A stretch of 4,272 nt of DNA, from IMG/VR virus record IMGVR_UViG_2531839236_000006; one strand, 5' to 3'. A program made the translations under genes and the position numbers. Shown piece by piece: positions 2,843 through 4,272 of the stretch (positions within the stretch are counted from its first letter, which is position 1; every line of letters starts with the position of its first letter). The notes beneath the pieces were generated by a model. It worked only from the letters and a program-made list of their open reading frames with translations, searched no databases and was not told the DNA's origin. Origin of the DNA: a virus. Taxonomy: Duplodnaviria > Heunggongvirae > Uroviricota > Caudoviricetes.

Positions 2843-3034
2843 ATGAACGGACAAATATCAATTGTTCGACCAGGAGCATGTGACGATCGCGAAATACGAA
2901 TGATTATTCGTCTGGCGATGGGGAAAACAATAACTGCTCTCATTACTCCAGAAAATCTCGCATTAGCATTAACAGGAAAGTCAGACATGCCAGTAGAGCT
3001 AAAGCTGCGAAATGTTGAGATTAAGGTGAAATAG
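2843..3034 (+). CDS. Small hypothetical protein, 63 aa, AT-richer than its neighbours
   Basis: ATG 2843 lies 1 nt after the upstream stop (TGA 2839-2841), with AAGGAGAG at 2831-2838. Stop TAG 3032-3034. GC is about 41% by my hand count versus the low-to-mid 50s elsewhere. Confidence 0.5.
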   Translation: MNGQISIVRPGACDDREIRMIIRLAMGKTITALITPENLALALTGKSDMPVELKLRNVEIKVK

Positions 3035-3036
3035 CT

Positions 3037-3594
3037 ATGACCACTATTACCAAAGATCGACTGCTGACAATCCAGCATTGGCGCGAAACATACGGACCGG
3101 GTAGCAACGTTGTGCTTCCAGCAGAAGAAGCGGAAGAGCTGGCACGGATTGCGCTGGCATCACTGGCAGCAGTATCGGATGAACGAGCAGCCTATGAATT
3201 ATTTATGGAGAAGCGTTTCGGAGAATCTGTAGATCGCCGCAGAGCAAAAAATGGCGATAGAGAATACATGGCATGGGATATGGCGCTTGGCTGGATTATC
3301 TGGTGTCACCGCGCCGCCATGCTTCAGGCTGGAAACTTTCGGGAAAATAAGGGTTCGTCAACCAATAATTTTCGGATAATCTCGGAAACGTCAACCAACT
3401 CTCCGGCAATCCCTGATGAGGTGTTGTCCGCAATCCTGAAGGTCGCCAGGCTTCGTGCAGATTTCGATGCTTCTGAAGTGGACAGGCGAGGTATCGGTAG
3501 TTGTCTGGATGAGGCCGAGCAAGAACTTATCGTTACCATTAACGAATACGCCAGTCAGATCGCAGTAGAAGCGACACAGGGGGAGAACCAATGA
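3037..3594 (+). CDS. Hypothetical protein, 185 aa
   Basis: ATG 3037 lies 2 nt after the upstream stop, with AAGGTGA at 3024-3030. Long ORF in coding-like composition; stop TGA 3592-3594. No motif I can assign. Confidence 0.65.
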   Translation: MTTITKDRLLTIQHWRETYGPGSNVVLPAEEAEELARIALASLAAVSDERAAYELFMEKRFGESVDRRRAKNGDREYMAWDMALGWIIWCHRAAMLQAGNFRENKGSSTNNFRIISETSTNSPAIPDEVLSAILKVARLRADFDASEVDRRGIGSCLDEAEQELIVTINEYASQIAVEATQGENQ

Positions 3595-3668
3595 GCCGGC
3601 CAGATGCATTTGCAGGCGTTGCTATAGCTATTGCTTTTCTAGTATATGTTATTTGTCGGTGGGGGTAA
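3591..3668 (+). CDS. Candidate 25-aa hydrophobic micro-protein (MSRPDAFAGVAIAIAFLVYVICRWG)
   Basis: ATG 3591 overlaps the stop of the upstream gene (ATGA) and is preceded by GGGGGAG at 3578-3584. Single hydrophobic helix-length segment; stop TAA 3666-3668. Absent from the ORF track because of its size. Confidence 0.35.
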   Translation: MSRPDAFAGVAIAIAFLVYVICRWG

Positions 3669-3703
3669 AAACGTTCGCCGGGATTCACACCAAGGGAGGG
3701 AAT

Positions 3704-3808
3704 ATGTCGGATGATATTTCACTGGTAATGGAAGGCGCTCTGGCTGTTATTGCTGTTGTGGGTGTTTACTGCCTGGTTGTGTTTTTGATGGAGCGCCTGG
3801 GGAACTGA
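3704..3808 (+). CDS. Candidate 34-aa single-TM micro-protein (MSDDISLVMEGALAVIAVVGVYCLVVFLMERLGN)
   Basis: ATG 3704 is preceded by AGGGAGGG at 3692-3699. Acidic N-terminus, about 20 hydrophobic residues, charged C-terminus; stop TGA 3806-3808. Confidence 0.4.
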   Translation: MSDDISLVMEGALAVIAVVGVYCLVVFLMERLGN

Positions 3809-3818
3809 ATTCATTCCG

Positions 3819-3834
3819 TATGGGAATTCCCATA
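3819..3834. promoter_or_regulatory. Perfect 16-bp palindrome TATGGGAATTCCCATA, candidate protein-binding site or RNA hairpin
   Basis: The reverse complement is identical to the forward sequence. It sits 11 nt after the stop of the 34-aa ORF and about 15 nt upstream of the putative hok -35 element. Confidence 0.4.
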
Positions 3835-3848
3835 TCGGGCAAAACGGT

Positions 3849-3876
3849 TTGCTGTAAAGCGAGAGTTAAGTAGAAT
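3849..3876 (+). promoter_or_regulatory. Putative sigma70 promoter of the hok mRNA
   Basis: -35 TTGCTG at 3849-3854, 16-nt spacer, -10 TAGAAT at 3871-3876. This places the transcription start at about 3883-3885, directly at the segment that is complementary to the 3' fbi-like element. Confidence 0.5.
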
Positions 3877-3882
3877 TGCTGC

Positions 3883-3930
3883 GGGTGCTTGAGGCTGTCT
3901 GCCTCGGGCATGCCACCGTAAGGCAGACAG
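3883..3930 (+). promoter_or_regulatory. hok mRNA 5' leader: tac-like 5' segment plus a 10-bp stem-loop
   Basis: 3883-3894 GGGTGCTTGAGG is complementary to 4257-4269. Perfect inverted repeat CTGTCTGCCT (3895-3904) / AGGCAGACAG (3921-3930) with a 16-nt loop. No U-tract follows, so it is not an intrinsic terminator. Confidence 0.55.
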
Positions 3931-4003
3931 AGAAAAGCCCCAGTTAACATTACGCGTCCTGCAAGACGCTTAACATTAATCTGAGGCCCAATCTATGCTT
4001 CAC
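3930..4003 (-). ncRNA. sok: Putative Sok-like antisense RNA (antitoxin of the hok locus); ends approximate
   Basis: The minus-strand promoter predicts a start near 4003. The transcript would be antisense to the mok SD (GAGG at 3983-3986) and mok start codon (3995-3997). On the minus strand a compound hairpin (outer stem 3937-3943 / 3981-3987 with one mismatch, inner stem 3954-3958 / 3965-3969) is followed by UUUUCUCU (complement of 3929-3936), which is terminator-like. Confidence 0.5.
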
Positions 4004-4207
4004 AAACGTAGGTTAGCCTCTTACGCGCCGAAAGGCAAGGAGAAGCAGGTTATGAAGCAGCAAAAGGCGATGTTAATCGCCCTGATCGTCATCTGTTTAA
4101 CCGTCATAGTGACGGCACTGGTAACGAGGAAAGACCTCTGCGAGGTACGAATCCGAACCGGCCAGACGGAGGTCGCTGTCTTCACAGCTTACGAACCTGA
4201 GGAGTAA
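3995..4207 (+). CDS. mok: Mok-like reading frame (modulation of killing), 70 codons, in frame with and extending hok
   Basis: ATG 3995 with weak SD GAGG at 3983-3986, running in the same frame through hok to TGA 4205-4207. Same layout as I recall for mokC/hokC in E. coli K-12. Confidence 0.55.
   Translation: MLHKRRLASYAPKGKEKQVMKQQKAMLIALIVICLTVIVTALVTRKDLCEVRIRTGQTEVAVFTAYEPEE
4010..4038 (-). promoter_or_regulatory. Putative sok promoter
   Basis: Read on the minus strand: -35 TTGCCT (complement of 4033-4038), 17-nt spacer, -10 TAACCT (complement of 4010-4015). Located inside the mok reading frame, as in the plasmid R1 hok/sok model. Confidence 0.4.
4052..4207 (+). CDS. hokD: Hok/Gef family type I toxin, 51 aa, HokD (RelF)-type
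   Basis: ATG 4052 with AAGGAG at 4037-4042. The translation MKQQKAMLIALIVICLTVIVTALVTRKDLCEVRIRTGQTEVAVFTAYEPEE has the Hok architecture (N-terminal TM helix, conserved Cys, periplasmic tail). It matches my memory of E. coli K-12 HokD essentially residue for residue and differs at several positions from HokC. Confidence 0.9.
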   Translation: MKQQKAMLIALIVICLTVIVTALVTRKDLCEVRIRTGQTEVAVFTAYEPEE

Positions 4208-4256
4208 GAGACCTGGCGGGGGAGAAATCCCTCGCCACCTCTGATGTGTCAGGCAT

Positions 4257-4272
4257 CCTCAACGCACCCCAC
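4257..4272 (+). promoter_or_regulatory. fbi-like (fold-back inhibition) element at the 3' end of the hok mRNA; may continue past the window
   Basis: 4257-4262 plus 4264-4269 (CCTCAA-c-GCACCC) pair with 3883-3894 (GGGTGCTTGAGG), 12 bp with one bulged C. This 5'-3' pairing is the hallmark of hok mRNAs. Confidence 0.5.

Follow-up and report, generated by a model that had tools for sequence, protein, structure and literature searches.

The perfect 16-bp palindrome just upstream of the hok promoter in this prophage is best explained as a remnant of a KilA-N/BstA-like gene, carried as an orphan passenger with respect to hok, a reading to which we assign a probability of roughly 0.5. The window (the whole stretch of 4,272 nt that was analyzed) is the nin region of an O157-type lambdoid prophage and contains the end of gene P, a DUF1627 gene, small genes, two micro-ORFs, and hok. 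In the model that we prefer, the palindrome is the surviving core of a 24- to 26-bp palindrome belonging to a KilA-N/BstA-like prophage gene, left on a fragment (3806-3839) at the mosaic junction where a micro-ORF meets the hok cassette. Ancestrally, the gene was probably intact and lay immediately upstream of hok in divergent orientation, an arrangement like that of one E. coli prophage today. We infer that a protein binds the palindrome, which would be a two-fold symmetric site for a dimeric DNA-binding protein, most simply the encoded KilA-N domain. The site would then be a cis-linked "self" mark, following the logic of the aba element of BstA with a different element. The window copy, which has no gene and has lost one base of its left arm, presumably lacks function and would be neither an operator of hok nor a terminator of read-through. 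The passenger reading is favored because such remnants are common in mosaic prophages, because most hok loci have no palindrome, and because the window copy is damaged.

The window palindrome and its source

Read directly from the letters of the window, TATGGGAATTCCCATA is its own reverse complement, which confirms the perfect 16-bp palindrome of the original prediction, and its placement between the micro-ORF and the hok promoter was correct as well: it begins 10 nt past the TGA of micro-ORF2 (3806-3808) and ends 13 nt before the -35 hexamer of hok, centered near -56. There is one copy in the window, even with three mismatches allowed, and no other perfect palindrome of at least 10 bp. Since a perfect palindrome of at least 16 bp appears in 6.0% of 20,000 first-order Markov shuffles of the window, TATGGGAATTCCCATA alone is only mildly unusual; it is the conservation of the sequence that argues against chance. 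The 16-bp symmetry stood, but a longer extent had been missed. The stretch around the core (Table 1) equals the 24-bp palindrome CCGATATGGGAATTCCCATATCGG minus one A of the left arm (CCG^TATGGG), which leaves T3835 unpaired. In relatives, TATGGGAATTCCCATA is the core of a perfect palindrome of 24 to 26 bp, CC(C)GATATGGGAATTCCCATATCGG(G), with perfect versions of 24 bp (L001), 22 bp (other prophages), and 26 bp (L133). PPompW phages have another gene upstream (paa/adfO), and the site there is the perfect 24-bp CCGATATGGGAATTCCCATATCGG. Folded as single-stranded DNA, the window copy reaches -6.5 kcal/mol versus -10.7 for the intact version; folded as RNA, window positions 3800-3860 reach -18.5 kcal/mol (z -2.4) versus -28.1 (z -5.8) for the intact version.

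Table 1. Coordinates of features in the window, with the accession of the E. coli parent-type protein
Feature	Positions	Strand	Details
Micro-ORF2	3704..3808	+	34-aa hydrophobic peptide with a strong RBS; annotated WP_001278460.1; stop TGA inside the gene remnant
Remnant of a KilA-N/BstA-like gene	3806..3839	-	~34 nt; codons P-D-M-G-I-P-I-S-E-(L>stop)-I
Extended imperfect palindrome	3816..3838	.	CCG^TATGGGAATTCCCATATCGG, equal to CCG^TATGGGAATTCCCATA-T-CGG
Palindrome core	3819..3834	.	TATGGGAATTCCCATA, perfect 16 bp; pairs 1-8 of the family palindrome
hok promoter	3848..3876	+	-35 TTTGCT 3848-3853, 17-nt spacer, -10 TAGAAT 3871-3876; read from the sequence
hok/sok cassette	3883..4207	+	mRNA 5' end with sok-complementary leader 3883-4057, Rfam RF01794
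mok and hok	3995-4207 and 4052-4207	+	in the hok/sok cassette
E. coli BstA-like protein			WP_000200358.1

The sequence beyond the palindrome identifies the source. The immediate flank matches the reverse complement of intact KilA-N/BstA-like genes at 13 of 14 nt, which makes 3806-3839 a gene fragment whose sense lies on the minus strand. Against intact E. coli genes, the window copy shows one mismatch over ~34 nt plus the missing A, and this 1-nt deletion shifts the frame of the remnant (..PDMGIPISE..). The hok-linked version with intact arms reads GATATGGGAATTCCCATATCGGAATGAATTCA on the minus strand, one base away from the GATATGGG[A/G]ATTCCCATATCGGAATTAATTCA of E. coli-type genes. Gene-less (orphan) copies align with the gene segment over 36-44 nt by BLAST, and all 24 unique hok-linked copies share one orientation. 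Longer remnants of ~50 nt, still reading ..SPDMGIPIS(R/G)L(T/I).., occur at hok in L294, L133, and L163, where they are followed by a 22-nt spacer and then the hok -35. In L296 (E. coli AR_0372), an intact KilA-N/BstA-like gene occupies the minus strand at 3433-4206, directly upstream of hok and divergent from it. As judged by these alignments, the origin of the palindrome as a fragment of such a gene is well supported. We further infer that the window-type right junction is approximately the product of a deletion between two ATCGGG repeats of the L294 type.

Several features of the surroundings were noted along the way. Two EcoRI sites (GAATTC) lie 17 nt apart at 3807-3812 and 3824-3829, the second forming the center of the palindrome; the first, in the remnant flank, reads GAATTC in the window versus TAATTC or GAATTA in intact genes. 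Micro-ORF1 (3591-3668), conserved like micro-ORF2, encodes a hydrophobic peptide of 25 aa ending in ICRWG, and its homologue in 933W lies directly upstream of hokW (L002, ~1420-1500); neither micro-ORF1 nor micro-ORF2 has a Pfam or PHROG match. Segment 3669-3840 is extra relative to 933W and is bracketed by the similar sequences TAAAAACGTTCGCC (3666-3679) and CAAAACGGTTTGC (3840-3852). In L296, the Hok/Gef gene (4729-4854) is in the nin region, and ORF1 (~3309-3386) lies on the far side of the KilA-N/BstA-like gene. In L294, an ORF6N-domain gene ends 19 nt before the palindrome, and a RelE/ParE toxin with an HTH antitoxin (3011-3719) immediately follows hok.

The parent gene and selection on its DNA

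The parent protein joins a canonical KilA-N domain (Pfam, 4.3e-27) to the C-terminal domain of BstA. PHROG 6287, "BstA abortive infection system," matches it over its full length (2.7e-89), PADLOC BstA matches the C-terminal half only (3.2e-21), and it is 32% identical to BTP1 BstA over 142 aa. The palindrome falls at about codons 55-63 of the gene, inside the KilA-N domain, and the residues that it encodes are an insertion relative to the APSES domain of yeast Mbp1 (PDB profile match), a loop that probably tolerates the residue changes dictated to it.

The original prediction had suggested a search for the same palindrome elsewhere in the host or prophage genome. The search found it in many genomes, and about half of the viral-contig matches listed in an exact 16-mer scan are unrelated to hok. 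Of the 41 unique contexts outside hok that were looked at first, 27 show a symmetry that continues for at least 3 bp on top of the 16-mer, for which the chance is 1 in 64 each, and ~18 fall within genes for KilA-N domains, where they coincide with the motif (D)MGIPI(S)ELIQ. Genes with C-termini other than that of BstA, such as P63C and T5orf172-like domains, are among those carrying it, so the palindrome tracks the KilA-N domain and not the BstA C-terminus. The genomes of those ~18 genes range from 22 to 56% G+C and include giant-virus MAGs. L127, L151, and L158, which are giant-virus MAGs and AT-rich contigs of 22-33% G+C, keep the motif as GGA ATT CCC ATA in KilA-N genes whose C-terminal regions look like T5orf172/GIY-YIG domains, which indicates that the palindrome is confined neither to bacteriophages nor to BstA. 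Arrays of half-sites beside intact genes were ruled out, further half-sites occurring only at chance level (11 of 50 loci with one mismatch allowed). A literature search found no description of a palindrome in KilA-N/BstA genes, and a search on GGGAATTCCC returned only NF-kappaB papers and a 16S sequence; the palindrome thus appears to be undescribed in this family.

For the analysis of selection, 80 homologues were taken from contigs at one genome per species, picked by the GTWVHP/AINLAQW motifs downstream of the site only; selection without reference to the palindrome avoids circularity. Their hosts are Proteobacteria, Verrucomicrobiota, Nitrospirota, Bacteroidota, CPR bacteria, and a member of the Bacillota. 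A perfect stem of at least 8 bp is found at exactly the same position in 55 of 78 homologues, with stem sequences that differ greatly from one to another (CCGAAACGGGAATTCCCGTTTCGG, CCGATGTCGGAATTCCGACATCGG, GGTCTATGGGAATTCCCATAGACC, CGATATCGGTATACCGATATCG, and CCGTCGTGC[atattc]GCACGACGG; one version reaches 34 bp). The residue pairs that flank G-I-P follow base complementarity: V..T, T..V, A..A, M/I..I, D..S, and S..D. Across 96 sequences, the 12-pair structure is 82.6% paired versus 66.5% in shuffles, the covariation score of 0.380 exceeds that of all 500 shuffles (0.141) and of the slid controls (0.07-0.13), and double-sided changes number 153 versus 48 expected. Pairing ends after pair 12.

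Codon use at the site is equally distinctive when compared with the remainder of the same ORFs (n=118): ATA for Ile in 97% versus 19%, CCC for Pro in 75% versus 16%, TCG for Ser in 95% versus 19%, ACG for Thr in 96% versus 24%, and GAT for Asp in 94% versus 57%. This third-position bias, together with arms that sit in shifted codon registers, rules out protein constraint alone as the cause. The mismatches in the stem comprise 26 G.T, 44 A.C, and 130 others. The lack of a G.T excess points to a constraint on DNA, whether a duplex site or a single-stranded hairpin, and not on an mRNA hairpin; statistically, symmetry is kept at third codon positions with no excess of G.U. An RNA hairpin was likewise ruled out by the lack of G.U enrichment on either strand and the lack of an Rfam family, no match over the palindrome being found in the window (E up to 10) or in the intact gene (E up to 5). 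In intact genes, then, as read from the pattern of substitutions, selection on DNA keeps the arms complementary even where the amino acids change.

Gene-less copies and the aba precedent

Orphan copies are far more common than the gene. Of 5,426 complete E. coli genomes, 139 have the intact gene segment and ~760 more have partial, gene-less matches; the places total 2,073, with ~1,900 orphan copies versus ~140 gene copies, so that ~14% of complete E. coli genomes carry orphans. The O157:H7 genomes listed have three to five copies each and the intact gene in none. Every E. coli copy examined is located in a prophage, next to hok or within a KilA-N gene, and each genome has one to eight such places, a distribution that rules out a REP/BIME-type repeat. 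Outside hok loci, 26 of 58 occurrences in viral contigs fall outside intact KilA-N ORFs. Some of the unextended ones are probably chance matches, of which our own estimate of the collection size predicts roughly 10-15 for a 16-mer, and about a dozen are short intergenic copies in unrelated viral contigs, several of them 22-32 bp. The neighbors of orphan copies were considered for a common theme and show none, being a mix of Bro-N, ClpP, AAA, baseplate J, KilA-N, and a sigma-like protein.

The copies next to hok bear signs of both decay and retention. The core is kept in all 24 unique hok-linked copies (158 loci), 7 of which carry substitutions, whether in the central 4 nt, in one compensated pair, or as a rare single mismatch, and it is kept in 117 of 117 loci found via the 3' end of micro-ORF2. 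The inner stems have 4 changes at 12 sites, 2 of which make up a compensated change of an A-T to a G-C pair (L109 group); elsewhere there are 5 changes in the central 4 nt, 6 at 4 sites of the left outer stem, and 8 at 10 sites of the left flank. The contrast in changed sites between the inner stem and the rest gives p ~0.03 in a rough calculation on closely related copies, and this conservation of the inner stems is suggestive but weak. The right arm with TCGG, on the promoter side, is the best-conserved part. Decay is seen in the 1-nt deletion of the window copy and in those six changes at four sites of the outer left pairs among orphans. The palindrome has nonetheless survived at least four left junctions and two right junctions, all within ~25 nt. 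Taken together, the conserved inner stems, the 117/117 retention, the surviving junctions, the excess of orphans, and the intergenic copies hint at retention for a reason.

One such reason would be that orphan copies act as decoy or immunity sites that neutralize the KilA-N/BstA-like proteins of other prophages, which would let a prophage lacking the defense gene multiply as an aba-like "cheater" in cells that possess it. We regard this as the main alternative, though less probable than a passenger. BstA is a prophage abortive-infection protein that is silenced by aba, a short element in its own locus; aba exerts its effect as DNA, is effective in trans when present at high copy, and shows specificity for the cognate BstA (PMC8585504). 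The palindrome is also a DNA-level element within BstA-family genes, with central positions that vary between lineages; the arms of the orphans are the same as those of E. coli gene alleles, their inner stems are conserved relative to center and flanks with one pair compensated, they outnumber genes and reach several per listed O157:H7 genome, short intergenic orphans occur in unrelated phages, and in one prophage contig the gene and a hok-linked orphan occur together. Against this stand the damaged outer stem of the window copy, the presence of the palindrome in KilA-N genes with non-BstA C-termini, and the small sample of closely related orphans, in which template-switch correction of quasi-palindromes could mimic compensation. 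The fuller claim, that the palindrome in KilA-N genes is the site of their own KilA-N domain and serves as a linked "self" mark, the cognate self-immunity element of KilA-N-type BstA-like proteins, and that the gene-less hok copies are anti-defense decoys, is in our estimate about as probable as the decoy reading or slightly less.

The comparison with aba itself also tells against a functional orphan. The only mapped aba, that of BTP1, covers 63 bp, 29 upstream of the gene plus the first 34 within it, and requires CCCGCC direct repeats at its ends (Owen et al. 2021, PMC8585504). The palindrome differs from it in sequence, in architecture, and in position, being 24 bp long and internal to the gene, and the two were ruled out as the same element; moreover, BTP1 bstA encodes another N-terminal domain and contains no palindrome. 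What the two share is shortness and a location within or overlapping a BstA-family gene. Action as DNA, demonstrated for aba, may apply to the palindrome as well, as the lack of G.U enrichment and the codon-level selection suggest. Differences in the palindrome between homologues could provide cognate specificity. A further difference is that the parent palindrome resides in BstA-family genes and the window copy has no such gene.

Two other systems offer partial parallels. Like other remnants in lambdoid mosaics (the nin region; morons such as hok), the passenger that we favor would be a fragment of a few dozen nucleotides left between exchanged modules, next to a self-contained nin-region cassette, hok, with variable upstream neighbors. 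It differs from them in that the piece kept coincides exactly with the portion of the parent gene on which selection acts at the DNA level, and in that it recurs with several junctions and outnumbers the intact gene. The origin of replication of phage lambda lies inside gene O, a case in which the coding sequence of a protein contains the DNA site to which that protein binds. There, too, a DNA site is superimposed on a reading frame and constrains codon choice; here the site is a single palindrome whose covarying arms force correlated amino acid changes, and its binding by the encoded protein is a prediction.

The interest of the palindrome is therefore not as a feature of hok, as which it is ordinary, but as a strongly selected palindrome in a defense-related family of phage genes. 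The family comprises DNA-binding proteins of phages and giant viruses, BstA-like proteins included, with the palindrome in the coding sequence, and many gene-less copies exist in pathogenic E. coli, several per EHEC genome. It offers a testable 24-bp candidate for how aba DNA silences BstA, or for what KilA-N domains target (PMC8585504). If the self-mark reading is true, the palindrome would represent a second type of aba with a different structure and would provide phage KilA-N domains with their first defined DNA target; it would also be an example of a protein whose amino acid sequence is shaped by the DNA site that it recognizes. Should the orphan copies be active, EHEC prophages would possess in them a widespread anti-defense device.

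The hok promoter and module boundaries

Most hok loci have no palindrome. Among 116 hok loci sampled from viral contigs by the hok 5' motif alone, it is present in 32 and absent from 84 (72%), with hokW of 933W among those without. The latter form three classes: that of hokW, in which the micro-ORF stop runs straight into AAAACGGTTTGC and the -35 region, a TTGGCGAGGT class, and a miscellaneous class. The hok -10 and the sequence downstream are common to all hok loci, and the sequence upstream of ~3841 differs by class. Homology between the classes breaks at window positions 3794, 3841, and ~3856-3871, which puts the palindrome at a module boundary and indicates that the majority of hok promoters manage without it. 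Among the loci that have it, the spacing to the -35 is not constant, being 22 nt longer in the L294 class.

These data bear on the role that was first proposed for the palindrome, namely control of hok transcription as an operator or protection of hok, through an RNA hairpin, against transcription running on from the early operon upstream. We consider either unlikely. The position 13 nt upstream of the -35, the stability of the predicted RNA hairpin in the window, and the good conservation of the right arm and TCGG beside the promoter are what speak for them. Yet the palindrome is missing from nearly three-quarters of homologous loci, the very comparison that the original prediction had named as able to refute a role at hok, and its spacing to the -35 varies. 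Its sequence is explained by descent from a gene that exists without hok nearby, the parent element has no excess of G.U pairs, and the window holds neither a second copy nor a candidate cognate regulator. The proposal of an operator or insulator of hok is left unsupported.

More specific elements were also considered. The hok/sok cassette of the window is well defined (Rfam sok, 114.9 bits, E 2.5e-27; Pfam HOK_GEF, 3e-23), and the hok mRNA and the Rfam sok model both begin at 3883, downstream of the palindrome. A regulatory element of hok/sok was ruled out by the location upstream of the -35 and outside the transcript and by the absence from most hok loci; that the palindrome is no hok/sok element is well supported. 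Its likeness to the known elements of the system (promoters, tac/fbi, ucb/dcb, and the Sok target) is one of physical neighborhood only: it lies outside the hok transcript and promoter and is missing from most homologous loci. The inverted repeats of the hok leader at 3884-3904/3921-3941 and 3950-3973 correspond to the 5' stem of hok mRNA and the Sok stem-loop region (TTACGCGTCCTGCAAGACGCTTAA), as expected of a hok/sok locus. An intrinsic (Rho-independent) terminator was ruled out, in agreement with the earlier view that no classical one was present: the palindrome has no U-tract, its stem being followed by CGGGCAAAACGG on the plus strand and AATGAATTCAG on the minus strand, and no terminator-like site was found in 3500-4272. 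An operator for a CI/Cro-type repressor was ruled out by the single copy in the window even with three mismatches. To our knowledge, the palindrome does not fit the consensus sites of CRP, FNR, LexA, PurR, or ArgR. The suggestion that it is a site for a phage protein is plausible, but the HTH or winged-helix proteins encoded upstream, which had been named as candidates, are not; the palindrome comes from KilA-N/BstA-like genes of many phyla and is native to phyla without the upstream genes of the window. No KilA-N protein is encoded in the window. For hok/sok, the outcome is a useful negative: no operator is hidden here, and hok promoters do not depend on a site of this kind.

An alternative of similarly low probability treats the palindrome as a hotspot of recombination or breakage, with mosaic joints forming at it, since it keeps its nucleotide sequence among otherwise divergent phage genes and reads alike on both strands, and leaving it functionless at module boundaries. 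Several independent junctions 12-25 nt to its left and 5-10 nt to its right, and the breaks in homology between the hok classes, would fit, as would the orphan in L191, which belongs to a different variant and lies a short way upstream of another KilA-N gene, and the direct repeats that flank the palindrome in L130. These junctions lie near the palindrome and not within it, however, and 24 bp is short for efficient homologous recombination. Ascertainment also matters, in that only remnants that retain the palindrome can be found by a palindrome search, and a hotspot leaves the DNA-level selection in intact genes unexplained. A chance palindrome without history, for which the 6% of shuffled windows might speak, is excluded, because hundreds of genomes share this sequence, with longer arms and in several contexts, and because the match to the gene continues beyond the palindrome.

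Three viral contigs carry further arrangements. In L191 (5869-5892 and 6232-6253), a KilA-N + P63C gene has the internal palindrome GGATACGGGAATTCCCGTATCC, and the other variant, GGTCTATGGGAATTCCCATAGACC, is intergenic, ~90 nt upstream of a TTGACA promoter-like site of the gene. The direct repeat in L130 (~6845-6920), GGCAACCAATGCGCGCA(C)AAATT, resembles a target-site duplication or a duplication junction. In L192 (13859-13920), two related palindromes lie ~30 nt apart in one reading frame (..DMGIPISPPADPVTGIPVSG..), the second being ACGGGAATTCCCGT.
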